DNA from: Acidobacteriota bacterium
Lineage (GTDB): Bacteria > Acidobacteriota > JAAYUB01
DNA length: 64,000 bases
Assembly: GCA_040768985.1 (NCBI GenBank)
Contig: JAXGLX010000002.1
Coordinates: 1,856,637-1,920,636 of the forward strand
Reading direction: 5' to 3'
In this document: positions 1,440 through 57,717 of the stretch, piece after piece
Layout of the letters: each line of letters opens with the position of its first letter
Numbering within the stretch: position 1 is the first letter of the stretch
Position numbers and translations under genes: made by a program
Notes under the pieces: model-generated
The model's database searches: none
The model's input: the letters and a program-made list of their open reading frames with translations, nothing else
What the model was told of the DNA's origin: nothing

Positions 1440-1930
1440 AGGTGAGCTTTGATCGCTCCGCCTGTTGTACCGATTGAAAGATATGATTTGACGTGATTGT
1501 ATTGGGATAAATTTCCAAATGCAATCTTTCGATGAACGATAATGTCGGTGAATGGGTGAATGGGTAAATCGGTGAATGGGTGAGGGTTCGTTCTCGTAAT
1601 CGTAATTCGTAATCGTGATCGTGATCGTGATCGTAATCGTGATCGTCATCGAAGTTCAAGGTGAATGGGTGAATCGGTGAATGGGTGAATCGGGAGACGG
1701 GAGACGGGAGACGGAAGACGAGAGACGGAAAACAGAAAACGTTAGATGAACGGAAAAACCCGAACCGCGAGCCGCGAATCGCCAGCCCCGAACCGCGAAC
1801 CCTGAACCGCGAGCCCCGATTTCCGATGTCCGATGTCCGCTGATCGGGAACGAGCCTCGAGTCCCGAGCCTCGATCACGATTACTCAGTTACTTCCGAAA
1901 TTCTGCCAAAATTTGGCAAAATTATTCACC
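1440..1930. repeat. Composite tandem-repeat block: (GTGAATGG/GTGAATCG)n, (CGTAAT/CGTGAT)n, (GGGAGAC)n, (CGAACCGCGAGCC)n, (TCCGATG)n, GGAACGAGCCTCGAG module, CGATTAC; ends with a copy of the R-end motif ACTCAGTTACTYCCGAAATTCTGCCAAAATTTGGCAA at 1880-1930
   Basis: Tandem short-period arrays are directly visible. The same modules in the same order recur at about 12 other sites in this window. Confidence 0.85.
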
Positions 1931-2260
1931 GGTTTCTTCCCCCCCTGATCGCCCATCCCAACATCGACCGGCACCGTCTCCGCATTCACGACGAAAATAG
2001 CCAGGCGCAGCCCCGCGAACGCGGGGCAGCGCCTGGAAGGCCAAATAGTTGACGCGCCGCGCCCCGGGTACGGGGCGCGAAGAAAGCGTGTCGGCGGACT
2101 CCACGCTTCCCCGCGCCCCTGTTCAGGGGCGCGTCGGGTAAAAATACTCGGCTGTCCAGGCGCTGCCCGGCTGCGCCGGGCTGCGCCTGGCTATTGTCTT
2201 TGAAACTGGACGGGCTTGCCGAAGATCCAGGATCGCGGCACGGAGCTGAAGTTCACCATC

Positions 2261-2545
2261 ATGCCCCTTTGGTTCCGGCTCCGCCGGGTTGGGATCACGA
2301 TTACGATCACGATTACGAATCACGAGCACGAGTACGAGCACGATCAGGCAGCGGGCAGGCGGGAGGTACCGCGAGCGGCAGCCAGGGGCGGTCCGCCACG
2401 ACCCCGCGAGCCCCGAACCCCGAACCGCGAACCCCGATGTCCGCAGCTTGGGAACGAGCCTCGAGTCTCGAGCCTCTAGCCTCGATTCCGATTACGATTA
2501 CTCAGTTACTCCCGAAATTCTGCCAAAATTTGGCAAGATATCTGG
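2261..2545. repeat. Composite repeat block with L-end motif (TTGGTTCCGGCTNCGCCGGNTTRGGATYACGATTACGA) at 2261-2310 and R-end motif (CCCGAAATTCTGCCAAAATTTGGCAA, palindromic core TGCCAAAaTTTGGCA) at 2510-2545
   Basis: The L-end motif is repeated at 4193-4245 (direct) and 43930-43985 (inverted). The R-end motif is repeated at 1880-1930 and 44355-44400 (inverted). The R-end overlaps the 3' end of CDS 2498..4060. Confidence 0.8.
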
Positions 2546-4060
2546 TGATGGCGCGCAACGGTCCGACAAGGCAGGGATGAGGAGGAACTCTTGCAGGGTG
2601 ACACCGGCGGCGATGACTTTACGACCGAGGGCGGTGAGGTAGTACTTGTAGCAGCGGGTGGCTTTGCGAATCAGTCCGCGCAGCCGGAGATTTTTCAATA
2701 GTCGAGACACCTGACTGGTCGTGCCGCCCAGGAGTCGGCGGACGTGACGGTTGCGCAGGCCGTTGACCATGAACTCAGCGCGACCGATGGTGCGCAGGAG
2801 GCGCTGATCGTGAGCGGCGAAAAAGTTCAGTCCGCGATACCGGCGCCCCTGATGGGTGTGCGCGTGCGACAGGTCGTCGAGCCGGCGGGCCCCATCGGTG
2901 GGGTCCTCGAGCTGGGCCAGGAAGTCGAGATAACGGGCGTTGGCCGCCCGCATCACCGGCATCAGTTCGGGCAGCGAATAGATGTGTTTGCGAAAAGGGG
3001 CCTCCTTGCAGACGGTGTGACCGGTCCGCTGTACCACCGGACGGTGGTGCCGGAAGTAGGTGATATCATCGGCCACCGTCTCCACCCGCAAGATGCGGTG
3101 ATGCTTGTCATACATCTTGATGGAGACCGGCCAGAGGGTATGTTTGACACAGGTGCCCTGCGGTCGGGTGACGAACAGGGTGTCCACGGCGCCCTTGGGC
3201 AGATGGGGAAACTGGCGGCCGAAGAATGCCGTCACCCGCTCCGGCTTCGCCGCCAAGATCACCGCGCGCGACAGGTGCTCATAGACCTGGCGCAACGCGG
3301 TCGGATCGCGAAACACGATGTCCGTGGCATACTCCACCTGGGAAACGGACCAGTGATACGTGGTCTCGAACGTCTCCATCACCGGGCAGCAGCGCCGGGC
3401 ATACTCATCGAGCCGGGCATGCAACCGGGCGATCGCCCAGTCGTCCGCCAGCCGCTGCGCCGCGGCATAGTCGGCCACCTGATGGAAGGCGTTGTCCTGC
3501 AGCGTAAACGCCACGCCCGCCGCCGCCAGCCGGTGGGCCAGCCAGGCGTGGCCGTTGAAGCAGACCTGCAGCCGGTACGGGCACCAGGTCGGTACGCGCA
3601 GGTGCAGCAGGCCCAGTTCCGCATCCAGGAAATAGAAATAATAGTGCAGGCACTTGCCGCCCCGCACCGTCAAATAGGGCGCCCCACTCGGGCGGCGGTG
3701 CCGCACCTCGTACGACTCGCAGCGTTCCTCGGCCGACAGAATGCAGACCAGGCCCGGCGTGTCGCCTCGGGCCGCGCGGCGGGCCTGCGCCACCTCTTCC
3801 TTGCGCACGCTGGCCTTCCGGATGAACTCGATCGTCTGCCCGTTCGCCGCGGCCAGCGCCTCCGCGGTCTGTTTGATCCGGTCTCGCAACCCCATCACCA
3901 GCGGCAGATACTCCGTCAGCGGCCGTTGCCGGCTGTGCAGGTAGGCCGCCATCCCGTCCCGGTAGCAGATCGTCGGCAACGTGCCGAAGAGCAGAATCCG
4001 GTCGTAACACGACAGCACGCCGGCAATCTCGTGCGAATAGCGCGTCTGCAGGTTGCTCAT
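2498..4060 (-). CDS. Hypothetical 520-aa protein with a C-terminal winged-HTH-like region; cargo of a repeat-bounded putative mobile unit; family not recognised
   Basis: Long minus-strand ORF with no long competing frame. The last ~13 codons (ILPNFGRISGVTE) are encoded by the R-end repeat that also occurs at two other sites. The basic region LRNRHVRRLLGGTTSQVSRLLKNLRLRGLIRKATRCYKYYLTALG is HTH-like. No DDE, HUH or tyrosine-recombinase signature was recognised. Confidence 0.6.
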   Translation of the reverse strand: MSNLQTRYSHEIAGVLSCYDRILLFGTLPTICYRDGMAAYLHSRQRPLTEYLPLVMGLRDRIKQTAEALAAANGQTIEFIRKASVRKEEVAQARRAARGDTPGLVCILSAEERCESYEVRHRRPSGAPYLTVRGGKCLHYYFYFLDAELGLLHLRVPTWCPYRLQVCFNGHAWLAHRLAAAGVAFTLQDNAFHQVADYAAAQRLADDWAIARLHARLDEYARRCCPVMETFETTYHWSVSQVEYATDIVFRDPTALRQVYEHLSRAVILAAKPERVTAFFGRQFPHLPKGAVDTLFVTRPQGTCVKHTLWPVSIKMYDKHHRILRVETVADDITYFRHHRPVVQRTGHTVCKEAPFRKHIYSLPELMPVMRAANARYLDFLAQLEDPTDGARRLDDLSHAHTHQGRRYRGLNFFAAHDQRLLRTIGRAEFMVNGLRNRHVRRLLGGTTSQVSRLLKNLRLRGLIRKATRCYKYYLTALGRKVIAAGVTLQEFLLIPALSDRCAPSPDILPNFGRISGVTE

Positions 4061-4189
4061 GGGTCACCATCTGAGAGAAAGGAATACTCCGATTATAGGC
4101 GATGTGGACCGCATGGAAAATCCTGCCCGCAAGAGAATACATTCCCGGCCGAACGCCGAGAGGCTGATGATCAGCCTTCGAGATACAGA

Positions 4190-4325
4190 TAATGCTTTTT
4201 GGTTCCGGCTACGCCGGCTTAGGATTACGATCACGATTACGAATTACGAGCACGAGCACCCAACTCCTATCTCCTGTCTCCTCACTGTTCACCGTTCACT
4301 GTTCACCGTTCACCGTTTTACATAG
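4190..4325. repeat. L-end motif copy (4193-4245) followed by CGATTACG array and GGAGATAGGAGA / GTGAACGGTGAACAG arrays
   Basis: Direct repeat of 2261-2310 lying 135 bp upstream of the ATG of CDS 2498..4060; tandem heptamer arrays visible. Confidence 0.8.
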
Positions 4326-4391
4326 ACCTTGCGGGATGCCGGGATTTTAACTATACTTTGCTTTTGAATCGTTGTTGAACGGAGTTTAAAC

Positions 4392-4796
4392 ATGGAACGG
4401 AAGATCCGCGTGCTCATCGCCAAGCCGGGCCTTGACGGCCACGACCGCGGCGCCAAGGTCATCGCCCGGGCGCTGCGCGATGCCGGGATGGAGGTCATCT
4501 ACACGGGGCTGCGCCAGACGCCGGAGCAGATCGTCGCCGCGGCGCTCCAGGAAGACGTGGACGTGATCGGCATCTCCATCCTCTCGGGTGCTCACATGCA
4601 TCTCTTCCCCAAGATCATGGCCTTGGTGAAGGCCAACCAGATGGACGACGTGCTCGTCTTCGGCGGCGGCATCATCCCCGAGGGGGATGTACCCCAGCTC
4701 CAGGCCATGGGCGTGGCCGCCATCTTCCCCCCTGGCACCTCCACCCAGTCGGTGATCGATTTCCTGAAGGAACGCTTCCAGGCCGCCAAGGCCTGA
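4392..4796 (+). CDS. Cobalamin (B12)-binding domain protein (methylmalonyl-CoA mutase C-terminal domain-like)
   Basis: 134 aa; [36 protein letters not shown]...[14 protein letters not shown] matches the B12-binding Rossmann domain with the DxHxxG motif. Confidence 0.85.
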
Positions 4797-14464: not shown

Positions 14465-14765
14465 TTTCCCGCCCATCCTCCGTAATTCGTAATCGTGATC
14501 GTAATTCGTGCTCGAGGCTTGGGACTCGGGGCTCGAGGCTCGTTTCCAAGCTGCGGACATCGCGGTTCGGGGTTCGGGGTTCGGGGTTCGCGGTTCGGGG
14601 TTCGGGGTTCGCGGTTCGCGGTTCGCGGCTCGGGGCTCGGGGTTCGCGGCTCGGGGCTCGGGCTCGGGGTTCGCGGCTCGGGGTTTTCCGTTCAGCTAAC
14701 GACTTCCGTCTCCCGCCTCCCGATTCACCCATTCACCCATTCACCCATTCACCCATTCACCGGCC
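14465..14765. repeat. Composite repeat block in reverse orientation (CGTAAT, CTCGAGG, CGGACATCG, GGGGTTCGCGGTTCG arrays, GTCTCCC, TTCACCCAT arrays)
   Basis: Same modules as 1440-1930 in reverse-complement order. Confidence 0.8.
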
Positions 14766-14768
14766 GAC

Positions 14769-15347
14769 TCAGCGGCGGGGGAAGCGAGGCTGCCGACGGT
14801 CAGGTCCAGTGCCCCTGGCCCGGTGCGCCGGCGCGGCCTCACGCAGCCGGGAGGACCACTGCCACAGTCCGTTGATGGCGGCCGGCGGGAGGCGGTGGCC
14901 CAGCGCCCGGGCCGCGACGACGAGCTGCCCCCGGTGGTGCGACTCGTGGGACAGGGCGTAGCCGCAGAAGAGGACCGCGTCGCGGGGCATGGCGCCGTAG
15001 ATGAACGGGCTCTTCACGCCGGGAAACGGGCCGCCGTTTGCCAGCCCCGCGTGCAGCAGGCGCTCCACGGCATCGGCGCTCAGGGCCAGGGCCGCGAGGA
15101 CATCGGCCGGCGCGGCCGCGGCGCGGTTCACTTGGCAGGGAACGGCGATCCCGGACGCCGTCGCGAGACTGTTCAGCCAGAGGCAGCGGCAGTTGTGGGG
15201 GTGGGCGGCGATGCTCCGCACGGTGCGGCGGGGCGCGCCGGGCAATCCCAGCGGCCAGAGGTCCGCGGGGAGTTGCTCCACAAGGAACGCGGTGACCCGG
15301 CTGTTGATGCGCCACGCATTCAGGATGGATTCGTGAAGCGCGTTCAT
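14769..15347 (-). CDS. DinB/DinB_2 superfamily protein (HxxxH...HESHHRGQ metal-binding motif)
   Basis: ALSHESHHRGQLVVAARAL motif; ATG at 15347. The C-terminal ~25 aa are encoded by the repeat block, so the true stop is uncertain. Confidence 0.6.
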   Translation of the reverse strand: MNALHESILNAWRINSRVTAFLVEQLPADLWPLGLPGAPRRTVRSIAAHPHNCRCLWLNSLATASGIAVPCQVNRAAAAPADVLAALALSADAVERLLHAGLANGGPFPGVKSPFIYGAMPRDAVLFCGYALSHESHHRGQLVVAARALGHRLPPAAINGLWQWSSRLREAAPAHRARGTGPDRRQPRFPRR

Positions 15348-18057: not shown

Positions 18058-18464
18058 GCGGCCGATTCACCACCAAGGCACGAAGGGCACAAAGAGATCA
18101 TCACCATTTGTCACTGATCATTTTTCATTGATCAATTGTCATTGGTAATTTTGGATGGTGAATCGGGAGACGTGAGACGGGAGATGTCAGACGGGAAGCA
18201 TCAGACAAACGGGAGGAATCGAACCGCGAAACCCGAACCGCGAGCCCCGATATCCGACGTCCAAAGTCCGATGTCCGGCCAGATCCCGGGTCCCAAATCC
18301 CAGATCCCATCCACAGCATGAACGAACTCTTTTCCAGATAGCCATTAAAATATAAGCAATCAACAATAACCAATAATCCGAAATGCCCAATGAAAAATGT
18401 CAGATGATCAATGACAAATGCATCTCTCTGTGCTCTTCGTGCCTTAGTGGTGAGAAGACCAAAT
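18058..18464. repeat. MITE-like unit: ~85-nt conserved 3'-end element at both ends in inverted orientation, flanking a composite tandem-repeat core
   Basis: 18069-18150 (CACCAAGGCACGAAGGGCACAAAGAGATCATC...GTCACTGATCATTTTTCATTG) versus the reverse complement of 18380-18460, each abutting the stop of one of the convergent genes. The core holds GTGAATCG, GGGAGAC, CGAACCGCGA and TCCGAYG arrays. Confidence 0.8.
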
Positions 18465-32027: not shown

Positions 32028-32470
32028 CATTCACCTCAGAGGGCACAGAGGACGCGGAGAAGATCATTCGTCATTGGTCATTGGTCATTGGTCATTTCTC
32101 ATTGGTCATTGTCAGAGGAGCGATGGGTGAATAGGTGAATGGGTGAAAAGGTGAATGGGAAGAGCTTATTTATTATTGCTCATTGACTATATTTTATTGG
32201 ATATTTAGAGCCGAGTCGGGTTTTGCCGGGATCCGGGAGGCGGGAACTGGGACCTGGGAACCGGGACCTAGGAACTGAAACCCGGGAACTAGGACCTGTG
32301 AGCTGGGGGCGAGATCCAGGCCCCAGAACCAAGGTCCCAGATCCGATATCCGAAGTCCGATATCCGAAGTCCGATGATCGGGAACGAGCCTCGAGTCTCG
32401 AGCCTCGATAACGATGACGAGCACGATGAACTCTCAACCCTCAACCATCAACCATCAACTATCAACCGAT
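32028..32470. repeat. 3'-end conserved element (diverged, GTCATTGG array) plus reverse-orientation composite repeat block
   Basis: 32030-32110 starts at the MFS stop; followed by GTGAATRGG and, in reverse, CTCGAG, TCGGACATCGGAT and GGTTCCCAGGTCC arrays. Confidence 0.75.
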
Positions 32471-32482
32471 GAAAGGTGAACC

Positions 32483-33271
32483 ATGGCCATAACGATCGAT
32501 CTGAACGCGGATGTGGGCGAGCGCCCCGAAGCACTGGCCGACGGCTCCGAGGCCGCACTGCTCCGGCTGGTCACTTCGGCCAACATCGCTTGCGGCGGCC
32601 ACGCCGGCGACGCCGCCACCATGGCCGCGACGGTGCGGCTGGCGCTGGAGTCCGGCACCGCCATCGGCGCCCATCCCGGCTACCCGGATCCCCTGCACTT
32701 CGGCCGGGCGGTCCTCGCCATGGAGCCGGCGGCACTTCGCGCCAGCCTGCTGGCACAGATCCGGGCGCTGGCCGGGATCGCGGCCGCCGCCGGCGCCCGC
32801 CTGGCGCACGTCAAGCCGCACGGCGCGCTCTACAACCTGGCCACGCGTGACGCGGCGACCGCCCGCCTCGTCGCCGAAACGGTGGCGGCGATCGACCCGA
32901 AGCTCGTGCTGGTGGGGCTGGTCGGCTCCGCCCTGCTGGAGGCCGGACGGATGGCGGGACTGGCGGTGGTCGGCGAGGCGTTCGCGGAGCGGCGCTACGA
33001 GGCGGACGGGACGCTGCGCGATCGGTGCCACGACGACGCGTTGGTCCGCGATCCGGCCGAAGCGGCGGCCCAGGCCGTCACCATCGCCCGCGACCGCCGG
33101 GTGACGGCCGTCGACGGCACGGTGGTGCCGGTGGACGCCCGCACGCTGTGCCTCCACGGCGACTCCCCCGGCGCCGTGGTCATCGCCGCCGCGGTCCGCC
33201 AGGCGCTTGAGCGCGCCGGCGTGGTTTTAGCGCCGTTGAGAGTGAACGGAGAGGAGATAGGAGATCGGTGA
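32483..33271 (+). CDS. pxpA: 5-oxoprolinase subunit A (LamB/YcsF family)
   Basis: IDLNADVGE...SANIACGGHAGD...HVKPHGALYN. The last ~9 codons (VNGEEIGDR) are encoded by the repeat array. Confidence 0.85.
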   Translation: MAITIDLNADVGERPEALADGSEAALLRLVTSANIACGGHAGDAATMAATVRLALESGTAIGAHPGYPDPLHFGRAVLAMEPAALRASLLAQIRALAGIAAAAGARLAHVKPHGALYNLATRDAATARLVAETVAAIDPKLVLVGLVGSALLEAGRMAGLAVVGEAFAERRYEADGTLRDRCHDDALVRDPAEAAAQAVTIARDRRVTAVDGTVVPVDARTLCLHGDSPGAVVIAAAVRQALERAGVVLAPLRVNGEEIGDR

Positions 33272-33530
33272 GTCGGTGAATGGGTGAATGGGTGAATCGG
33301 TGAATGGGTGAATCGGTGAATGGGTGAATGGGTGAATCGGTGAATGGGTGAATGGGTGAATCGGTGAATGGGTGAATCGGTGAATGGGTGAATCGGTGAA
33401 TGGGTTGTGAGGGGGATTCATCAATTATGAGAAGACCGATCTCCGATGTCCGATGTCCGATGTCCGATGTCCGCGTCATGGGAACGAGTCTCGAGCCTCG
33501 AGTCTCAATGACGAGCACGATTACGATTCG
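33250..33530. repeat. Composite repeat block: GTGAATGG/GTGAATCGG array (12 units), TCCGATG x4, GGGAACGAGTCTCGAGCCTCGAG, ACGATTACGATTCG
   Basis: Direct reading; same module order as 1440-1930. Confidence 0.85.
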
Positions 33531-39719: not shown

Positions 39720-39930
39720 CGGCCGCCAGTCTTTCACCACAAAGACACGAAGGACACAGAGGAATCCAGTTGTCATTGATCATCTGACATTTTTCATCGG
39801 GCATTTCGGATTATTGGTTAGTAATCGTAATTCGTAATCGTAATCGTGCTCGAGGCTCGAGCACGAATTACGAATTACGAGCACGAAATCCGAAGTCCGA
39901 TATCCGATGTCCGATGTCCGATGTCCGTCC
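39720..39930. repeat. 3'-end conserved element (39725-39815) plus composite repeats (CGTAAT, CTCGAGGCTCGAGC, TCCGATATCCGATGTCCG)
   Basis: CACCACAAAGACACGAAGGACACAGAGGAATCCAGTTGTCATTGATCATCTGACATTTTTCATCGGGCATTTCGGATTATTGGTTA is near-identical to the element at 18380-18464 (reverse complement). Confidence 0.8.
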
Positions 39931-39932
39931 CC

Positions 39933-40592
39933 CTACAGCATCGCCACCAGCACCATCAACACCGTGACCAGCATGGCCGGGTTGTCCAGCCAGCCGGGGA
40001 CGGCTGCTTCCGCTGCGGCCCCGGCCAGGGCCGCGGCGCCGGCGGCGGGCAGCAGCGCCGGCAGGGCCAACCCGTAGCCGAAGTGGCCGCCGATCGTCAC
40101 GATCCCCAGGACGGCTGCTGCGTTGACGGCCGCCCCGACCAGCGACTTGCCTGTCCAGGGGAGACGCGGTCCGCCCAGGCGCCGGCCGGCGATCGCCGCG
40201 GCGGCGTCCCCCCCGCTCATGGCCAGCACCGCCAGCACCAGCTCCGCGCGCCGGCCGGCCAGCCAGGCCCAGCCAAGGGCGAGCAGCGGCCAGACCACCA
40301 CGGCCAGGTAGTAGAGGCCGCGCTCCAGGCGGATGGTCCGCCGGTGGCGCCGCCAGTTGGCTCCCGCATTGCCGGCGAGGATCAGGGCGAGAGCCGGCAG
40401 GAACAACCAGGCCCGCGTCAACCCGTGGACCAGGGGAATCACCCAGACCCCCAGCGCCACGTGGAACACCTTCCGCCCGGCGAACGCCGACAGGCGGCCC
40501 CGCCGGACGACTCCCCCCAGCAGGTCGTGGGTCAACCGCATGCCCGCGAGCCACGCGCCCGCAATGACCAGTTCCCAACCCAGATCGCTCAT
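39933..40592 (-). CDS. Integral membrane protein, CTP_transf_1 (CdsA / dolichol-kinase-like) family candidate
   Basis: 219 aa, ~6 TM; C-terminal SGGDAAAAIAGRRLGGPRLPWTGKSLVGAAVN resembles the cytidylyltransferase family signature. Confidence 0.5.
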   Translation of the reverse strand: MSDLGWELVIAGAWLAGMRLTHDLLGGVVRRGRLSAFAGRKVFHVALGVWVIPLVHGLTRAWLFLPALALILAGNAGANWRRHRRTIRLERGLYYLAVVVWPLLALGWAWLAGRRAELVLAVLAMSGGDAAAAIAGRRLGGPRLPWTGKSLVGAAVNAAAVLGIVTIGGHFGYGLALPALLPAAGAAALAGAAAEAAVPGWLDNPAMLVTVLMVLVAML

Positions 40593-43859: not shown

Positions 43860-44400
43860 CATGGCTCGTTCCCGTAACGCGGACATCGGACTTCGGAAAT
43901 CGGATATCGAATGTCGTGCTCGTAATTGAAATTCATAATCGTAATCGTGATCCTAAGCCGGCGTAGCCGGAACCCATTGATTGAAAGGATCTGGAATTCA
44001 CTCGTCCAATCAGTCGTTCATCGATCGGCCCAGCGCCTGAGACATGCGCACGATCCGCCGGTTGGCAACGTGGAGGTACCGCGAGCGGCAGCGAGCGGCG
44101 CGACAGCCCACTCGGCACGCCTGACCCCAGTTGCCCAACCACTCTGTCCGTGCCGCTTGAATGCCCGTCCGGTCGTCAAAGGGCCAACCATCGCCGCTGG
44201 GTCGGCAACGACACACCCGGTCGCGTGACACGCACTACAGTCAACGTGATGGAATGGTTTCGTGGCGTCGGGACATCAAGGCGGCTGGCCCTTCGCGCCG
44301 CTCGCTGCCGCTCGCGGTACCTCCCGTCTGCCGGCTGCTTGATCATGCTCATGGCTTCAGTCAAAAGATCTTGCCAAAAATTGGCAGAATTTCAGGAGTA
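43860..44400. repeat. Miniature (MITE-like) deletion derivative of the 2.5-4.25 kb unit, inverted: L-end motif at 43930-43985, R-end motif at 44355-44400, and a 31-bp perfect inverted repeat pair (44072-44102 / 44294-44324) inside
   Basis: Reverse complements of the L and R motifs found around CDS 2498..4060. GGAGGTACCGCGAGCGGCAGCGAGCGGCGCG and its exact reverse complement are 191 bp apart. ORF 44161..44784 ends with a degenerate QKILPKIGRISGVTDY copy of the 520-aa protein C-terminus. Confidence 0.75.
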
Positions 44401-44732
44401 ACTGACTACCGGAGACCCGAGGCCGGGCCGCATCGGCTGCCGGTTCCGGCCTCGTCTCAGCCCGACTTCCAATTCCGCTTTTGGCCTGACCCGTCACGGT
44501 GGCGACCCTGTGTTCGCGTGGAGAAGAATTTTCAACTGGCGAAATCGCCTCCAGCCGCGCCGTTCGAGGTGCATCTCCCGCCCATGACAGCAGACAAGCT
44601 TTCCGCCATGTGGTACGATGACCGCATTCCACGTGTTTGTGTTTCTGATCCGGTTTGCGCCTTGGATATATTCGGAGGTTGTATTCTCCATCGCCACGTG
44701 CCGGGATACGATCGCCAACAGAGAGGTGGGCC

Positions 44733-46610
44733 ATGCATCGGTTCATTTGGTTACTGGCGTCGGGCATTCTATTCGTTGGGCTGATTAGCGCGGAATACGA
44801 CTGGAAGGAGAGCCAGAAACTCTGGAAGGAAGTCCAGAAATTGGACAAAAAGTGCCAGAAAGGGGATCGCAAGGCCTGCCTCAAACTCAGCCAGCTCGCG
44901 ATATCCCACCCGGACAACTCCATCCGAGCGATGGCCGCCGTTAGGATCACCGATCAGACGCTGCGGAATCGCCTGGCCCTGGAAGATCCGGACCCCAAAG
45001 TCCGCCGGGCAGCGGTCCGCGGCGTCTCCGACCAGGCGGTGCGGGCCCGGGTCGCGCTGACCGACACGGACGCCGAGGTCTGTGAAACCGCCGTGGAAAA
45101 ACTCACAGACCCGGAGGCCCTGGCACAGTTGGCCATCGATGATCGGCATTCCCTCATGGTCGATGGGCGAGTGCAAAAAACCGCCGTCAAGAACCTGAAT
45201 GATCAGGCGGCCCTGGCCCGAGTGGCCATCGAGTCCAAGATTTGGACGATCCGACTGGCGGCGGTCGAGAAGCTCTCCGATCCGGCGGCTCTGGCCCGCG
45301 TGGCCATCGAGGCAAACGACTTTCGAGGGGAAAATTCCCTGGCCGCGGGCAAGCTGACGGATCCGGCGGCCCTGGCCCGTGTGGCAGTTAAAAGCCCGTA
45401 TCGCAATGTGCGCATCACAGCCGTCAAGAAGATCTCAGACCAGGCGGTCCTGGCCGAGGTGGCGCTCAAGGATACGGACAAAGAAGTCCGTCTGGCCGCT
45501 GTGAAGAAGCTCACCGATCCGGCCGTCCTGGCCGAAGTGGCGCTCAACGATGAAGTCGCGGACATCCGATTGTCTGCCGTAACGAGGCTCACAGATCAGG
45601 CAGTCCTGACAAAGATTGCCCTTGAGGACCCCGCGGCCAGTGTCGGAGTGGCCGCAACGGAAATACTCTGGGACCAGGAAACGCGGGGCCGGGTGGCGCT
45701 CCAGAGCCCCCATGAGGCCGTCCGCCGGGCGGCGCTGCGAAATCTCATCAGCGAAAAGGTCCTGTACCGGGTTGCGCTCGATAGTGACGATGCGTTCGTC
45801 CGCCAGGATGCCACCGAGCGACTCGTCGATCAGGAACTGCTGACACGGCTTGCGGCGGATAGCCGGGACACGGTCGTCCGTCAGGTGGCCGTCGGGAAGC
45901 TCAAAGATGCGACGGTTCTGGCAAGATTCGCCCTGGAAGAACCGGACGAGCAGGTCCGCGCAGCCGCGGTGCGCAACATCACCGATCCGGCGGTGTTGGT
46001 CCAGGTGGCCGCTAAGGACAAGGATCCGATTTTGCGCTGGACAGCGGTCGGCAAATTGGATGATCCGGGTAAGCTGGGCGCGTTGGCAGCCAGGGAAACC
46101 GATCCGATGGTCTGCACCCGGATTCTCAGCCGGTTGCCGGACGCGTCACCCGCGCTGTTGCCGGTGGCCGGAGACCTCAGCCGGTCTGCCCGAAATGCCC
46201 GCGAGGGCATTGCCCGCATCAAGCTCGCCGTCAGGGAACCGCGGGTCCAGATCCGGTGCCCAGGTCTCCAGACGGCTGTCGCGATTGACATCATTGGAGA
46301 GCAATACACCACGATGGGATTAGGCGGCAGGCGGTTATTAATCAGGGGTGAAAAAATTGCCGTCTCACTGCAATGGCAGAATAATCCTCCCGTCCAGAAA
46401 CAATGGCAATCGGCTTTTCCAAAGGATTTTTTGGCGTTGGACGGAGTATTTCCCCGGTTTCAGGAGGCGGATGTAAACGTCGGGGAGCTGCTGGAGGCGC
46501 TACTTCGAGCCGGCGATTTCACCCCGGACGACCTGGCAGAACTGGTTCGATCGAAGATTCCCGAGGTCCGCACCGCCGCACAGAAGCGGCAGACGGAGTT
46601 GACGAACTGA
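44733..46610 (+). CDS. HEAT / PBS-lyase-like repeat protein with N-terminal signal anchor
   Basis: At least 15 repeats of the ~31-aa unit (D..VR.AAV..L.DQAVLARVAL.D.D) following MHRFIWLLASGILFVGLISA; ATG at 44733 with a GAGAGGTGGG RBS. Confidence 0.75.
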   Translation: MHRFIWLLASGILFVGLISAEYDWKESQKLWKEVQKLDKKCQKGDRKACLKLSQLAISHPDNSIRAMAAVRITDQTLRNRLALEDPDPKVRRAAVRGVSDQAVRARVALTDTDAEVCETAVEKLTDPEALAQLAIDDRHSLMVDGRVQKTAVKNLNDQAALARVAIESKIWTIRLAAVEKLSDPAALARVAIEANDFRGENSLAAGKLTDPAALARVAVKSPYRNVRITAVKKISDQAVLAEVALKDTDKEVRLAAVKKLTDPAVLAEVALNDEVADIRLSAVTRLTDQAVLTKIALEDPAASVGVAATEILWDQETRGRVALQSPHEAVRRAALRNLISEKVLYRVALDSDDAFVRQDATERLVDQELLTRLAADSRDTVVRQVAVGKLKDATVLARFALEEPDEQVRAAAVRNITDPAVLVQVAAKDKDPILRWTAVGKLDDPGKLGALAARETDPMVCTRILSRLPDASPALLPVAGDLSRSARNAREGIARIKLAVREPRVQIRCPGLQTAVAIDIIGEQYTTMGLGGRRLLIRGEKIAVSLQWQNNPPVQKQWQSAFPKDFLALDGVFPRFQEADVNVGELLEALLRAGDFTPDDLAELVRSKIPEVRTAAQKRQTELTN

Positions 46611-46650
46611 GGCCAGACAAGTTCAGATCATGGGCGAGGTGAACATCGTG

Positions 46651-48399
46651 ATGAAGCGCTGCATATGGATCATGATTGCCGGACTGGTCTTGAACGCCGC
46701 AGTCTGGGCCGAGGACAAGATTCAGGATGTGGACCAGCTGGCCGCCAAGTGCGCCGCCGGCAATCGGAAAGCGTGCGAGAAGCTCAACCAGTGGGCGCTG
46801 GCCCATACCAATTACACCATCCACTGCCAGGCCATCCGCCGCGCCACCGATCCGTCGGTGTTGGCCGCGGTGGCGCTAAAAGACGAGAGCCGGGAGGCGC
46901 GCAGAATCGCGGTCGAGCGGATCACCGACCAGTCGGTGCTGGCGAAAGTGGCGCTGGAGGATCGGATGGAACTCGTTCGCCGGGCAGCCGTCGAGCGCCT
47001 CTCCGAACCGGCCGCGCTGGTCCGGGTGGCCATTGAAGACGACGACGAAGCGACCCAACTGCTGGCGGTGGCGCGGCTCGACGATCCGGAGGGCCTGATA
47101 CAGGTGGTCAGAGAGGCGAAGACCTGGAATATCCGCAACGCCGCCATCGTGCGGATCACCGATCCGGTGGCAATGGCCCGCCTGGCGCTCGATGCGCCGA
47201 ATCCGGAAATCCGCGAAGCGGCCGTGGAGCGGATCAACGATCCGGCGGTGTTGGCCCGGATCGCGCTCGGTGACCAGCAGCCGGACGTCCGTCGGGCGGC
47301 CGTTGGCCGGATCGATGACCCGGCCGTGTTGGTACGGGTGGCGGCGGAGGACGCCGCGTGGGACGTCCGTCGGGCCGCCGTCGGCCGAATCGACGATCAG
47401 TTGGTGCTGAACCGGATGGCGGCGGAGGATCCAAATTGGAATGTCCGAAAGGCTGCGGCCGGCAAACTGATCGATCCCTCCGTGCTGGCCCGGGTGGCGA
47501 CACAGGATCCGGAACCCTCTGTCCGGGAAGCAGCCGTCAGACGTCTCGACGATCAGACGGTGCTGGCCAAGGTGGCAACCGACGATGCGGTGCCGGCCGT
47601 ACGCGACACCGCCATTGAACGACTCGCCGACAGCGGACTACTGGCCAGCTTGGCGGAGGCGGAGAAATCCATCATCCGCCGCGCCCGGATCATCGCTCGC
47701 ATGTCCGATACCGCACCCCAGTTGGTGGACCTGTCCGGAAACCCCAAACGGACCGCCCGCGACACTCCCGAATGCCTGGCCCGACTCAAACGGGCGACCC
47801 AGGAACCGATTGTCCAGTCCCGGTGCCCCGGCCTGTTTGTCGAGCTGGAGATTGCCGAGATCTCTTCTCGAGGAAAGTACAGCGGAGAGCTGGACGTACG
47901 GGGCGAGACGGTGACTATCGCATTGCGACGGGAACGCGCTCCGGCTGTGAAGATGACGTGGCAGACCTCATTCCCGCCAATATTGGTAGTCCCGGAAACA
48001 GCGCAGACGTGGTTCGTCGACGCAAATGCGGATGGGGGCGCCCTGCTGGCAGAGCTGTTTCGTTCCGGTCCGTTTGCCCATGAGGACCTGTCCGCGCTGA
48101 TGCGCTCCGTGCTGCCCGAAATTCGGGCGGGAGTGGTGGCTTGCCTGTCCGAACCGTCGCTGCTGGCGCGGGTGGCTTTGGAGGATGATGTGCCCAAGAT
48201 CCGCGCCGCAGCCGCCGGGAAACTCACCGATCAGGCGGTGCTGGCCAGGGTGGCACGAACGGATGCCGATTCGGATGTCCGCATCATCGCCATCGAGAAG
48301 CTCGCCGACCCGGCGGTGCTTGACGCGGCGGCAAGCAAGGATCCGGCTCCGGATGTTCGCTCAGCCGCATCACGACGCCTCGCCACCATCCGTCAGTGA
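46651..48399 (+). CDS. HEAT / PBS-lyase-like repeat protein, paralogue of the upstream gene
   Basis: MKRCIWIMIAGLVLNAAVWA signal; shares the KCAAGNRKACEKL motif (KCQKGDRKACLKL in the paralogue) and the 31-aa repeats. ATG at 46651 (GAGGTG RBS) preferred over 46630. Confidence 0.75.
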   Translation: MKRCIWIMIAGLVLNAAVWAEDKIQDVDQLAAKCAAGNRKACEKLNQWALAHTNYTIHCQAIRRATDPSVLAAVALKDESREARRIAVERITDQSVLAKVALEDRMELVRRAAVERLSEPAALVRVAIEDDDEATQLLAVARLDDPEGLIQVVREAKTWNIRNAAIVRITDPVAMARLALDAPNPEIREAAVERINDPAVLARIALGDQQPDVRRAAVGRIDDPAVLVRVAAEDAAWDVRRAAVGRIDDQLVLNRMAAEDPNWNVRKAAAGKLIDPSVLARVATQDPEPSVREAAVRRLDDQTVLAKVATDDAVPAVRDTAIERLADSGLLASLAEAEKSIIRRARIIARMSDTAPQLVDLSGNPKRTARDTPECLARLKRATQEPIVQSRCPGLFVELEIAEISSRGKYSGELDVRGETVTIALRRERAPAVKMTWQTSFPPILVVPETAQTWFVDANADGGALLAELFRSGPFAHEDLSALMRSVLPEIRAGVVACLSEPSLLARVALEDDVPKIRAAAAGKLTDQAVLARVARTDADSDVRIIAIEKLADPAVLDAAASKDPAPDVRSAASRRLATIRQ

Positions 48400-48539: not shown

Positions 48540-48600
48540 GGTGTTTGATTGTGCTTCCCCCAATTCACCGATTGACCGATTCACCGATTCACCGATTCAC
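48540..48600. repeat. ATTCACCG array (reverse GTGAATCGG-type) at a convergent gene junction
   Basis: caattcaccgattgaccgattcaccgattcaccgattcacag. Confidence 0.7.
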
Positions 48601-49013
48601 AGCTTCTCAACGGTCAGGTAGTAGTAGCAGGCCGCCGGCCGGCCCTGGTCATCCACGGGTTTGGAAAACCGGTACCGCGACACGGCCTGGGTGAGGGCCT
48701 TGAGCACGCAGCGGGGCACGTCGTCCATCCTGTCCATGTTCAGCATGACGGCGCATTCCACCTCGCCCTGCTCGTCGATGAGGATCTCATAGACCGGCGC
48801 GACCTTGCCCAGCTTGCCCTGGCAGCCCGGCGGACGCTTCACGGGCGAGCGCTCCAGGATCTTCAGGTCGGGAACCGCCTCCGGCTCCAGAATGATCCGA
48901 TCCGGCGATTCGATCATCCCGGTGCAGTGGTGTTTCCGCTCCGGCGGTTCATCCGCGACGGCAACGCCGATAAAAAACACCACCATCAGGAGCAATAGCA
49001 CAATTCGGATCAC
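48597..49013 (-). CDS. Small membrane-anchored protein, possible TonB C-terminal-like domain
   Basis: GTG at 49013 with a GGAGG RBS; N-terminal TM IRIVLLLLMVVFFIGVAVA; C-terminal PVYEILIDEQGEVECAVMLN...LKALTQAVSRYRFSKP is weakly TonB_C-like. Confidence 0.4.
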   Translation of the reverse strand: MIRIVLLLLMVVFFIGVAVADEPPERKHHCTGMIESPDRIILEPEAVPDLKILERSPVKRPPGCQGKLGKVAPVYEILIDEQGEVECAVMLNMDRMDDVPRCVLKALTQAVSRYRFSKPVDDQGRPAACYYYLTVEKL

Positions 49014-56470: not shown

Positions 56471-56534
56471 GGCGTCACCTCCCGGGCCAGGATGCTGCCG
56501 GCATGGTTTGGCGCGGATCCATTATATAACCGCA

Positions 56535-56880
56535 AGCGGGGATCGTGATTGTAAACGTGATCGTAATCGCAATCGTGATCGTAATCGCAATCGTGATCGC
56601 AATCGTGATCGCAATCGCAATCGAGGCTCGAGACTCGAGGCTCGTTCCTGGAACGCGGACATCGGACGTCGGAAATCGGAAATCGGAAATCGGACCTGGG
56701 ACCTGGGTTCTGGGCCCTGGATCACAGAACCCAGATCCACGTACCCATTCACCCATTTACCCATTCACCCATTTACCCATTCACAATTCGAAATGCTCAA
56801 TGACAAATGAAAAATGAAAGATGATCAATGTAAGACTCCTCTCCCGATTCACCTATTCACCTATTCACCCATTCACCTAT
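56535..56880. repeat. Composite repeat block (CGTGATCGTAATCGCAAT array, CTCGAG module, GGACATCGGA, GGAAATCGGA x3, GGACCTGGGA, TTCACCCAT arrays) plus 3'-end conserved element (56780-56830)
   Basis: Direct reading. The minus-sense of 56780-56880 contains TTGATCATCTTTCATTTTTCATTTGTCATTGAGCATTTCG right after the stop of the beta-barrel gene. Confidence 0.8.
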
Positions 56881-57717
56881 TCACCAGATCTTAATCCTAT
56901 AGCTCACCCCCGCGCTGAGCGATGTCTCGGAGACAAACATGCCCTGCACGGCGAACGACCAGCCGTCGCCGAGGTCCACCTCCACGCCCGGCAGCACGGC
57001 GAGGTTCTTCTCGCGGGTGGTCCTGCCGTCGTAAGCGACGGTGATTTCCGGATACGGGGCGTACACCCAGAGGCCGTCCAGGTCGAAGTGGGAGTGGCAG
57101 TAGCCCAGGCCGACATACGGCGCGAACCGTCCGACGGGCCAGACCAGGATTCCTGACGCGCTGGCCTGCCAGTACGTGACTGTGTCATCGGTCGCCCAAC
57201 CGAGTGATTCGGCGGAGCTGCCGTCGGGCGCGTAGACCCAGTCCCCGACATCGCGCGACGTGTAGCGGAGGTATTTCACCGCGGCGATGAGCTCGGGCCC
57301 CGCCGCATGCTTCCACAGCAGGGCCTTGCCGCCCACGTACCAGAGGAACCGACGCCCGACGGTTCCATCCCAGTCGTTGACGCCCGCCTCTTCGCTGAGC
57401 CATCGACCACGGCCCGTCAGGCCGAGGCCGGCGTTGACGTTGACGCGGTCGTGGAGTCCCAGCGCCAGGGTTACGAGGAATTGTTCATCGTCCTCGAATT
57501 TGGCATCCTTCACATCGGTGGCCGAGGAATCGTCCCAGTAGGTCCGGGCCAGTTCGTAGTGCTCGAAATCCTGGAGGAAAATAAATCCGGCCTGCAGCCC
57601 CACCCCCAGATGCCCCTTGGGCACCAGACGGACGGGATTGCCGACGTCCTGGGCGGCGGCGGCAGTCAGGCAGGCGGCACCGATCAGCAGCAACAGCAGG
57701 TGGTGTTTCACGGTCAT
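56881..57717 (-). CDS. Outer-membrane beta-barrel protein
   Basis: Signal MTVKHHLLLLLIGAACLTAAAAQD; alternating amphipathic strands; C-terminal ...SAGVSYRIKIW aromatic terminus. Confidence 0.6.
   Translation of the reverse strand: MTVKHHLLLLLIGAACLTAAAAQDVGNPVRLVPKGHLGVGLQAGFIFLQDFEHYELARTYWDDSSATDVKDAKFEDDEQFLVTLALGLHDRVNVNAGLGLTGRGRWLSEEAGVNDWDGTVGRRFLWYVGGKALLWKHAAGPELIAAVKYLRYTSRDVGDWVYAPDGSSAESLGWATDDTVTYWQASASGILVWPVGRFAPYVGLGYCHSHFDLDGLWVYAPYPEITVAYDGRTTREKNLAVLPGVEVDLGDGWSFAVQGMFVSETSLSAGVSYRIKIW

Follow-up and report, generated by a model that had tools for sequence, protein, structure and literature searches.

The window analysed here, a stretch of 64,000 nt from the genome of an Acidobacteriota bacterium, carries on its minus strand an open reading frame of 520 aa, which had already been noted in the original prediction and which lies within a unit of 1,721 bp (Table 1). 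Based on a comparison with more than 60 related elements, the borders of this unit are the exact points of flank divergence, between CCTAA and SCCGG... on the left and directly after ...ACTAA on the right, and the same borders were found at at least five other insertion sites of the identical element. Two motifs, L and R, had been predicted to recur without the gene. Indeed, each occurs three times in the 64 kb: R at 1901-1919, 2518-2536 and 44371-44389 (chance expectation 0.02) and L at 2269-2306, 4199-4236 and 43939-43976 (chance expectation 0.00), with the last site of each on the opposite strand. A looser scan for the hairpin of the left end (LE) returned the same three sites and two one-mismatch matches that are not ends, about 1.6 being expected by chance. 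L and R are always paired in constant relative order and orientation, which gives one full unit and two gene-less units with refined borders. They are two different sequences, a left and a right end (RE), and not direct repeats of one sequence as first described. A reading of L and R as generic modules of a composite repeat was ruled out, as only three paired ends occur in 64 kb compared with hexamer arrays at at least ten loci.

Table 1. Features of the insertion sequence, its gene-less partners and their flanks (positions within the window).
Feature	Position	Strand	Description
Full-length element	2498..4218	minus	1721 bp, one 520-aa gene; in gene orientation reads GCCGGCGTAGCCGG...ACTGAGTAA
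Putative transposase gene	2498..4060	minus	ORF, 520 aa
Predicted protein domains			N-terminal TBP-like (Rep_trans-like) ~1-355; helical linker 360-425; C-terminal winged helix ~429-492 (residues)
Left end (LE)	4195..4218	minus	5-bp hairpin CCGGC-GTA-GCCGG, then AACCAAAAAG; core of the L motif
Right end (RE)	2498..2541	minus	palindrome TGCCAAAATTTGGCA at 2521-2535, then 25 nt to terminus ...ACTGAGTAA; the R motif
CCTAA target pentanucleotide	4219..4223	minus	directly 5' of LE; belongs to the target, outside the element
Hexamer array (TCGTRA)n	4224..4259	.	flanks the LE side of the full copy
Equivalent hexamer arrays	2484-2497, 2294-2335, 1870-1880, 43917-43951		
Gene-less unit 1	1881..2288	minus	MITE-like, 408 bp; LE CCCGGCGGAGCCGGAACC and RE; flanking pentanucleotide CCCAA at 2289-2293
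Gene-less unit 2	43957..44409	plus	MITE-like, 453 bp; CCTAA at 43952-43956

Both gene-less units share with the full copy only about 27 nt of LE and about 45 nt of RE. Their interiors, each a long inverted repeat, have no relation to the gene or to one another, which rules out the proposed origin as miniature deletion derivatives of the full copy. In unit 2 the LE is identical to that of the full copy, while the RE has two mismatches and the terminus GACTAC. A decayed C-terminus of the protein had been read in this unit; it is merely the RE in frame, because the last ~16 residues of the ORF (SPDILPNFGRISGVTE) are read-through into the RE. Homologues end about 16 aa earlier. As single-stranded DNA, units 1 and 2 were predicted to fold with -122 kcal/mol (z = -8.0) and -121 kcal/mol (z = -7.2), respectively. 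Both are small, have the ends of the element, lack a transposase and carry CCTAA or CCCAA 5' of LE; they are thus MITE-like, non-autonomous partners bounded by the same ends, as had been suggested. Gene-less units with these ends also occur at another locus (L192).

The ends are conserved far beyond this organism. LE is nearly invariant at 63 loci from many phyla (SCCGG-N3-5-GCCGGAACCAAAcAGG) and consists across phyla of a CCGG-stem hairpin, predicted in single-stranded DNA, followed by AACCAAA. RE consists across phyla of a covarying hairpin and the terminus ACTAA. This terminus resembles the target; it reads ACTAA in most relatives and AGTAA in the window element, where the terminal TAA doubles as the stop codon of the ORF. 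The RE stem is kept through compensatory changes: 63% of cells were paired in 35 elements, compared with 29-49% in slid controls, and the observed named-stem count was reached by 0 of 500 shuffles. RNAalifold predicted no structure on ungapped right ends. The end hairpins are short and alone not thermodynamically exceptional (z about -1), and Rfam gave no match in 1500-4600.

CCTAA was found directly 5' of LE in about 60 independent insertions, position -6 and beyond being random. That the pentanucleotide is part of the element is contradicted by two observations. First, one copy (L074) interrupts a repeat gene; excising the element and keeping one CCTAA restores the 120-nt period, and the paralogous uninterrupted repeat retains exactly one CCTAA. 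Second, the junctions of RE to LE at two further loci (L063 and L078) are without CCTAA. A model of CTAA target duplication was excluded, the copies of the window lineage all having CCTAA at the left boundary and GAGTAA at the right one. We found no target-site duplication at the insertion sites of the window lineage or at L074, and no terminal inverted repeats in the comparison with relatives. Together with the lack of a match to any DDE family, this upholds the earlier view that the unit is not a classical DDE insertion sequence.

In this organism, (TCGTAA)n arrays provide the CCTAA target through a variant unit, TCCTAA, and the at least five insertion sites of the window lineage all read ..TCGTAA T(C)CTAA, element, TCGTAA.... 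At least 120 metagenome contigs contain TCGTAATCCTAATCGTAATCG without any element. In metagenomes we did not recover the precise empty site of the insertion seen in the window, and the empty-site evidence comprises the paralogous repeat at L074 and TCCTAA array units of a generic kind. The literature was searched for GATTACGA-type repeats with no relevant result. Such arrays flank the unit and lie outside it; they are the context of insertion and provide the CCTAA target.

The protein belongs to a large family, with more than 5000 matches and 6410 representatives at 50% clustering. Relatives are nearly all of about 505 aa, lie mostly on contigs of 1.6-2.5 kb, and come from at least ten phyla: Acidobacteriota, Desulfobacterota, Nitrospirota, Planctomycetota, Bacteroidota, Pseudomonadota, Bacillota, Actinomycetota, Spirochaetota and Cloacimonadota. 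A plasmid of Paraburkholderia phytofirmans OLGA172, a cultured strain, carries one homologue. Five long-read genomes hold three to five copies each at different loci, with 0-3 mismatches per 1600 nt, and the identical window protein was found at at least five different sites. The mobility that had been predicted follows from these copies, and the 1.7-kb unit is a genuine insertion sequence that has moved recently.

Homologues are named "hypothetical protein", "ArsR family" or "MarR family transcriptional regulator" in RefSeq and IMG, and a winged helix-turn-helix (wHTH) is the sole domain detectable by sequence. Both facts would suit an ordinary, immobile winged-helix transcription factor gene situated between intergenic repeats. 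This reading is hardly credible and was refuted by the near-identical copies at several sites per genome and by the interruption at L074; moreover, identical 1.6-kb copies together with their ends lie at unrelated loci, both within genomes and across ten phyla, and the ends are common to units that have no gene.

The many 1.6-kb contigs that consist of just the unit, and RE/LE junctions compatible with circles, might instead indicate a tiny rolling-circle replicon or satellite, plasmid- or phage-like, which is episomal with its own Rep and integrates secondarily, the chromosomal copies being integrated forms. The fold and motif described below resemble replication initiators as well. We nevertheless regard such a replicon as improbable. 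Any multi-copy insertion sequence assembles into unit-length contigs, and copies lie inside long chromosomal contigs at three to five sites per genome. The junction at L063 joins two different units and that at L078 runs on into unique flank, implying tandem insertions and not closed circles. Finally, neither a separate integrase nor a second-strand origin is evident in the 1.7 kb.

We then turn to the protein. In agreement with the original prediction, which had placed it outside the recognisable transposase, nuclease and recombinase families, searches against Pfam, NCBIfam, PHROGs and PADLOC gave weak wHTH matches only, PDB sequence and profile searches gave nothing relevant, and no housekeeping family matched. 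The predicted C-terminal winged-helix DNA-binding domain was recovered by wHTH matches in sequence searches and in fold searches with the modelled structure. Because the wHTH dominated the fold searches with the full-length model, residues 1-400 were modelled separately (pLDDT 89.9). The top match of this model was TBP, consistent with a crescent-shaped, TBP-like beta-sheet domain; no RNase H-like, RuvC-like or other nuclease fold was among the matches, and no internal duplication between the domain halves was detected. Twelve columns are invariant in 95 diverse sequences: D20, R21, E112, Y141, Y143, G150, P161, N169, E243, Y317, R325 and E327. The protein had been taken for cargo of the unit, but it is most likely the transposase itself.

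Rep_trans initiators have an active site composed of Y191 with R189 and K193, the metal ligands D46, D142 and E214, and R212 (PMC4797284). Candidate equivalents can be named in the window family. Its N-terminal Asp strand has D20 in SCYDRILLFGTL, compared with SFDAMTIVGNL of Rep_trans; E243-x3-D247 compares with D142-x3-D146, K315-x-Y317-x-K319 with R189-x-Y191-x-K193, and R325-x-E327 with R212-x-E214. These residues are invariant or nearly so, occur in the same order and lie on predicted beta-strands; D20, E243, Y317, R325 and E327 make up five of the twelve invariant columns. Motif order, spacing and strand location are the basis of these equivalences, and the tyrosine nucleophile is not uniquely assigned, since Y141 and Y143 are likewise invariant. 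At the level of sequence, Pfam PF02486 matched neither the window protein at E <= 1 nor any of the 95 members at E <= 10. Using hhalign against an alignment of ten Rep_trans sequences taken from plasmid records, the probability was 0.5-1.6% and not significant; a sub-optimal alignment, without statistical support, pairs IKMYDK with IRIYNK and D20 with D46. The family profile gave no significant match to a single RepC sequence, and a RepC-seeded protein search returned only relatives more than 80% identical, which were of no use for a profile.

According to its model, the protein looks like a plasmid rolling-circle nickase of the Rep_trans kind. With Rep_trans and MOB_T proteins (pT181 RepC/RepD, RepSTK1, CTXphi RstA, ICEBs1 NicK) it would share, through its candidate residues, the order and spacing of a beta-strand tyrosine between basic residues, the R-x-E on the next strand, the acidic-x3-acidic strand and the N-terminal Asp strand, and also a separate DNA-binding module for a palindrome adjoining the nick site. 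It differs in showing no significant sequence or profile similarity, in its larger domain (~355 aa) with long insertions, and in having a wHTH as DNA-binding module. Furthermore, Rep_trans proteins reside in plasmids, phages or ICEs, whereas the window gene resides in a multi-copy chromosomal element of 1.6-1.9 kb with two specific ends. A close architectural parallel is Rep-Arvir, a TBP-fold nickase fused to a MarR-like wHTH and undetectable by sequence (PMC13107129). In these archaeal rolling-circle initiators (DUF7845; NAR 2026, PMC13107129), as in the architecture predicted here, a catalytic TBP-fold domain precedes a MarR-like winged helix and the relationship to Rep_trans is visible through structure only; both families also have a conserved tyrosine with acidic residues and a cognate DNA hairpin. 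However, Rep-Arvir proteins serve archaeal viruses and plasmids in replication, while the window family comes from bacteria and has the behaviour of an insertion sequence. Pfam DUF7845 did not match the window protein.

One could argue that the same mobile element uses other chemistry, either a metal-dependent hydrolytic or transesterification site of Asp and Glu residues in a novel fold, with DDE-like logic and no tyrosine intermediate, or a protein whose sole part is to recognise the ends, with replication or repair enzymes recruited from the host. The invariant columns include several acidic residues, TBP is not an enzyme, and the homology to Rep_trans is without statistical support at the sequence level. 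We consider this alternative unlikely, as no nuclease fold was among the matches and as the invariant tyrosine with basic residues at -2 and +2 and R-x-E on the next strand is a candidate counterpart of the Rep_trans arrangement. In addition, hairpin ends and a fixed 5' pentanucleotide without target duplication or terminal inverted repeats are the anatomy of a tyrosine-nickase element and not of a staggered-cut DDE element.

This anatomy can be compared with that of IS200/IS605. Both lack terminal inverted repeats and target duplication, have a subterminal hairpin at each end and insert in a single orientation directly 3' of a fixed tetra- or pentanucleotide; they also have in common an RE terminus of similar short sequence, the RE/LE junction, and palindrome-rich non-autonomous derivatives (PATE/MITE). 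In contrast, the TnpA of IS200/IS605 (HUH Y1, "peel and paste") has about 150 aa, so that members of the window family (~505 aa) are three to four times larger; they have no HUH motif or RRM-like fold but a TBP-like fold with a wHTH, the window element has no tnpB, and the end sequences are unrelated. Consistently, there was no Pfam or NCBIfam match to Y1_Tnp. Like IS91, ISCR and Helitrons, the element inserts beside a fixed short sequence without target duplication, its two ends differ (ori-like and ter-like), and tandem or junction forms are possible. Those elements use an unrelated HUH enzyme that has two tyrosines on a helix; short inverted repeats are present in IS91, and Helitrons have a helicase. 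No HUH Y2 Rep transposase was matched in Pfam, NCBIfam or by fold. For IS110/IS1111, neither DEDD_Tnp_IS110 nor Transposase_20 matched in Pfam and no RuvC-like fold was found.

The element might also belong to an insertion sequence family already described, for instance an orphan group of ISNCY, with a transposase merely absent from Pfam and NCBIfam, which do not cover all orphan groups. We judge this very improbable, since NCBIfam, the source of the PGAP models that name transposases, gave no match, the homologues carry the non-transposase names given above, and full-text literature searches turned up no description of the element family. No listed ISNCY group is known to combine the lack of inverted and direct repeats, a length of 1.6-1.9 kb and a CCTAA target. 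Nor did we find a report in the literature of a Rep_trans-like nickase acting as transposase.

Taken together, we propose, with a probability of roughly 60%, that the element belongs to a new insertion sequence family, set apart through Pfam, NCBIfam and the literature, which is moved by a Rep_trans-like tyrosine nickase in the manner of IS200/IS605 or IS91. In this model, window positions 2498-4218 would be an autonomous member of a widespread family with a single protein, the transposase; the element has a subterminal hairpin at each end and inserts in one orientation directly 3' of CCTAA. The transposase would combine a TBP-fold domain of the kind found in Rep_trans initiators and MOB_T relaxases with the C-terminal winged helix, and winged helix and concave beta-sheet may bind the end hairpins. 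D20, E243 and E327 would hold a metal, and Tyr317, between K315 and K319, would nick a single strand, at the left junction directly behind CCTAA and in RE behind the terminal TAA, and become joined to the DNA through a 5'-phosphotyrosine link. Strand transfer would then yield a single-stranded or rolling-circle intermediate with an RE/LE junction, which would re-insert 3' of another CCTAA. The data show the borders of the element, its target, the lack of terminal inverted repeats and target duplication, recent movement in multiple copies, the conserved ends, the fold and the set of conserved residues; we infer what Y317 and the acidic residues do in catalysis, the strand specificity and the single-stranded or rolling-circle intermediate. 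The gene-less units would be mobilised in trans through the same ends.

Transposases are at present assigned to the catalytic classes DDE, DEDD, HUH-tyrosine, tyrosine recombinases, serine recombinases and Cas1. Whether the element founds a new class of prokaryotic transposons is in our estimation evenly balanced; such a class would be an insertion sequence superfamily in at least ten phyla with a TBP-fold, Rep_trans-like tyrosine nickase as transposase, and the widespread intergenic (TCNTAA)n hexamer-array hairpins would serve it as landing pads and, in some MITEs, as cargo. If so, one more transposase class would be added, built on an enzyme fold that has so far been known only from conjugation and from the replication of plasmids and phages, and a second, non-HUH lineage of rolling-circle nickases would also have been recruited for transposition, in parallel to HUH enzymes in IS200/IS605, IS91 and Helitrons. 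The finding would correct a large body of mis-annotation, with thousands of members listed as hypothetical proteins or ArsR/MarR regulators, and account for many breaks in metagenome assemblies from soil, sediment and sludge. Strict CCTAA specificity, minimal ends of 27 and 45 nt and a single-protein machinery make the system directly testable, and it may serve as a sequence-specific tool for single-strand DNA insertion. An unexplained class of intergenic hexamer-repeat hairpins would thereby be linked to transposon biology.

The 520-aa gene of the window belongs, with a probability of about 0.93, to a real family of mobile insertion sequences (IS). The observation originally made in the window was confirmed as a whole: the ORF is real, and its L motif, whose core is the left end (LE), and its R motif, the right end (RE), also recur without it. 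Each motif occurs three times in the window (0.00 and 0.02 expected by chance, respectively), and the two are invariably paired in one relative order, in one 1.7-kb unit with the gene and in two ~0.4-kb units without it. A looser search of the window for the LE hairpin returned the same three sites and two one-mismatch matches that are not ends (~1.6 expected by chance).

Mobility of the unit, as predicted, is supported by near-identical copies at unrelated loci whose flanks diverge sharply at the ends. Five long-read genomes carry 3-5 copies at unrelated loci with 0-3 base differences per 1600 nt, and the window protein is found with identical sequence at at least five different sites. Using a scan of species-representative genomes, we found relatives, often in several copies per genome, in Acidobacteriota, Desulfobacterota, Nitrospirota, Planctomycetota, Bacteroidota, Beta- and Gammaproteobacteria, Bacillota, Actinomycetota, Spirochaetota and Cloacimonadota. 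The family has more than 5000 matches in a protein collection clustered at 90% and 6410 representatives at 50% clustering; almost all are ~505 aa long, and the majority lie on contigs of 1.6-2.5 kb, which is the signature of a multi-copy element breaking assemblies. Elements typically measure 1.6-1.9 kb, and in one neighbourhood genes of IS4/IS5 type, DDE_3 and IS110 form an IS graveyard. Plasmid pOLGA1 of Paraburkholderia phytofirmans OLGA172, a strain in culture, carries a copy with 44% identity and the canonical ends, flanked on either side by a cytochrome c gene.

That copy is annotated as 'ArsR family transcriptional regulator', a source name that homologues share with 'hypothetical protein' and 'MarR family, partial'; the family goes unrecognised as a transposase in NCBI annotation. 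In agreement with the original prediction of an unrecognisable protein with a C-terminal winged helix-turn-helix (wHTH)-like region, Pfam, NCBIfam, PHROGs, PADLOC and PDB sequences gave no match to the window protein except weak winged-helix hits at residues ~430-490, and distant members likewise matched nothing further. Homologues stop ~16 residues short of the C-terminus of the window ORF, implying that its tail is read-through into the RE; the TAA with which the element ends serves as the stop codon of the ORF.

Coordinates of the element, its partners and associated repeats (gene orientation; a slash marks an element boundary; L-numbered contigs lie outside the window)
Feature	Position	Left junction	Right junction
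Full element, minus strand	window 2498-4218	..TCGTGATCGTAAT CCTAA / GCCGGCGTAGCCGGAACC..	..TTGCCAAATTTTGGCAGAATTTCGGGAGTAACTGAGTAA / TCGTAATCGG
520-aa ORF, minus strand	window 2498..4060
Unit 1	window 1881-2288	CCCAA / CCCGGCGGAGCCGG..	..GAGTAA / TCGTGATCG
Unit 2	window 43957-44409	CCTAA / GCCGG..	..TGACTAC / CGGAG
~55-nt repeat, arms in unit 2	window 44040-44110 / 44286-44356
~55-nt repeat, single	window 2336-2390
Composite arrays	window 1540-1880, 14480-14770, 18157-18280, 32107-32430, 33224-33530, 39822-39935, 43863-43951, 48541-48617, 56527-56900, 61556-61800
Gene of 78-nt repeats	window 45000-48300
pOLGA1 copy (L236)	NZ_CP014580.1 about 252.73-254.36 kb	CCTAA / GCCGGACGAGCCGGAACCAAACAGG	TTAGCGACTAA /
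Head-to-tail copies	L078 1-78
Copy abutting RE-bearing unit	L063 1-186
TCGTAATCCTAATCGTAATCG arrays	L120 4044-4109; L126 6015-6100; L152 2082-2135
Intergenic units	L192 1074-1240, 1914-2090, 2440-2620	CCTAA / CCCGGCATAGCCGGAACCAAA	..AAGGGACTAC

The small units had been taken for deletion derivatives of the full copy. This part of the interpretation did not hold, while the mobile unit, its MITE-like partners and the winged helix did: units 1 and 2 have the ends alone in common with the full copy, their interiors resembling neither the gene nor one another, and are non-autonomous partners. Both form long hairpins when folded as single-stranded DNA (z = -8.0 and -7.2, respectively). Because only the ends are shared, the minimal cis sequences comprise ~27 nt on the left and ~45 nt on the right. 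A ~55-nt sequence (..GGAGGTACCGCGAGCGGCAGC..) forms both inverted-repeat arms inside unit 2 and, as a single copy, also lies between unit 1 and the full copy, which makes it a further dispersed repeat of this genome.

Boundaries were determined by aligning copies with different flanks, and the transitions were sharp. The left junction, CCTAA/SCCGG-N3-5-GCCGGAACCAAAcAGG, is nearly invariant in 63 loci, with random bases upstream of CCTAA, and the LE is conserved even where protein identity to the window protein falls to 43-50%. The RE contains, ~25 nt inside the terminus, an imperfect palindrome (consensus TTCTTGCC...GGCAAGAA) and ends in ..TAAGrGACTAA/, beyond which flanks diverge. Its stem is kept through compensatory changes, with pairing in 63% of cells versus 29-49% in slid controls, two-sided changes in 35 cells versus at most 18, and a score reached by none of 500 shuffles. 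The aligned copies lack terminal inverted repeats and target duplications, in line with the original view that this is not a classical DDE IS.

The flanks had been singled out for inspection for such duplications. In contig L074, the element interrupts a gene of 120-nt tandem repeats, and its removal with one CCTAA kept restores the 120-nt period with an exact match to the neighbouring unit GCCATAAACCCTAATGGCACGC. A 4-bp CTAA duplication would fit this locus as well, but is excluded because the left and right sides read CCTAA and GAGTAA, respectively, in every window-lineage copy; unequal tetranucleotides also flank several other elements. In addition, the RE/LE junctions of contigs L078, with two copies head to tail, and L063, where the ACTAA end of a non-coding RE-bearing unit directly adjoins a full copy, read GGGACTAA/CCCGG without CCTAA. 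Together, the L074 period, the unequal tetranucleotides and these junctions show CCTAA to be part of the target, with no duplication on insertion. In L063 and L078, either an ACTAA terminus was used as target or the contigs captured circle-type junctions.

The full-length AlphaFold model (pLDDT 84) matched only winged-helix proteins in the PDB, plus a weak TATA-binding protein (TBP) match. Residues 1-400 modelled alone (pLDDT 89.9, pTM 0.87) matched TBPs (1mp9_B, 5fur_A and 7o4i_O; 8.6, 8.1 and 8.0; 158-167) and the Rep_trans proteins RepSTK1 (4cij_A; 7.6; 171) and RepDE (4cwc_A; 7.2; 166), with no RNase H, HUH, RuvC or recombinase fold among the matches listed. Rep_trans enzymes have a TBP-like fold, and the tyrosine with which they nick DNA becomes linked to it through a 5'-phosphotyrosine bond (PMC13107129; PMC4797284). 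Their nucleophile Y191 lies between R189 and K193, the metal ligands D46, D142 and E214 each come from a separate strand, and R140, A144, D146 and R212 are also conserved (Carr et al., PMC4797284). Aligning 95 diverse family members, down to 25% identity, left only 12 invariant columns (D20, R21, E112, Y141, Y143, G150, P161, N169, E243, Y317, R325 and E327), with K315, K319 and D247 nearly invariant. Five of the 12, all on predicted β-strands, match the Rep_trans constellation in both order and spacing, the candidate equivalents (RepC/RepD numbering) being D20 in SCYDRILLFGTL for D46 in SFDAMTIVGNL, E243-x3-D247 for D142-x3-D146, K315-M-Y317-D-K319 for R189-I-Y191-N-K193 and R325-V-E327 for R212-V-E214.

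Profile-profile comparison with 10 Rep_trans sequences (pT181 RepC and plasmid homologues down to 19% identity) was not significant (probability 0.5-1.6%); the best local alignment, itself not significant, pairs D20 with D46, and an extended one, likewise not significant, pairs IKMYDK with IRIYNK. None of the 95 members matched Pfam Rep_trans. The family thereby parallels archaeal Rep-Arvir, in which a MarR-like wHTH is likewise joined to a TBP-fold domain and the link to Rep_trans is visible through structure alone (PMC13107129). We favour, with moderate confidence, a Rep_trans-like tyrosine nickase as the transposase. Judging by their invariance, Y141 and Y143 could provide a second or alternative nucleophile.

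IS200/IS605, IS91 and other elements mobilised by single-strand tyrosine nickases have a well-established anatomy. The family resembles them: its ends differ from each other and carry subterminal hairpins, a fixed pentanucleotide precedes the LE and has a look-alike at the right terminus, nothing is duplicated, RE/LE junctions occur, and the non-autonomous partners are rich in hairpins. Boundaries, target, copy number and fold are shown by the data; catalysis, strand choice and intermediate we infer as follows: the wHTH and the concave sheet would bind the end hairpins, Y317 would cleave the gene-sense strand at two points, behind CCTAA and behind the terminal TAA, and strand transfer would yield an RE/LE-joined single strand or rolling-circle copy, which would insert 3' of another CCTAA, those within hairpin-forming hexamer arrays being favoured or tolerated. 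Known homes of Rep_trans enzymes are plasmids, filamentous phages and conjugative transposons (PMC13107129, 2026), and our full-text literature searches turned up neither a transposon nor a transposase of this kind. The odds that this is a new catalytic class of transposon are about even, the main residual risk being that ISfinder lay outside the comparison.

Window-lineage copies are always located in GATTACGA-type arrays. Read in hexamers, all their insertion sites are ..TCGTGA TCGTAA TCCTAA (element) TCGTAA.., and the CCTAA target is thus a one-base variant unit of (TCGTAA)n arrays, one module of the composite intergenic repeats of this genome. A Sedimentisphaerales genome has the element at the end of (CCTAATA)n arrays. 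About 60 nt upstream of the LE in the window-lineage contigs L102 and L105 there is a further right end (..GGGAGTAACTGAGTAA), separated from the LE of the full copy by 7 nt (TCATCAT) plus CCTAA, indicating that family units cluster within the same array. Uninterrupted TCGTAATCCTAATCGTAATCG occurs in at least 120 metagenome contigs; only 3 of the 80 loci listed match the LE regular expression and one of these, L192, continues with the AACCAAA of real left ends, so the arrays occur without the element and give it neutral places to land. The metagenomes searched did not yield the precise empty allele of the window's own site.

The composite arrays of the window are intergenic and consist of 6-8-nt tandem units, (GGTGAATG)n, (GGAGACG)n, (CGAACCG)n, (TCCGATG)n, GGGAACGAGCCTCGAG and (TCGTRA)n, in similar order and both orientations; only (TCGTRA)n is linked to the element, as landing site. 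The window also holds a long gene of 78-nt (26-aa) tandem repeats (~19 copies, 60-80% identity; repeat families D4, D5 and D9).

Contigs with TCGTAATCCTAATCGTAATCG (L116-L195) come from soil, peat, sediment and sludge. The sequence usually consists of two inverted arrays, (TCNTAA)n and (TTANGA)n, around a 15-40-nt spacer, giving long intergenic hairpins that look like a widespread repeat class, of which we found no description. L192 contains three intergenic units of one layout: the family LE, a hexamer-array hairpin and a ~50-nt, RE-like tail. These are MITEs of this IS family with the hexamer-array hairpin as cargo, and their layout suggests that the family may spread hexamer arrays.
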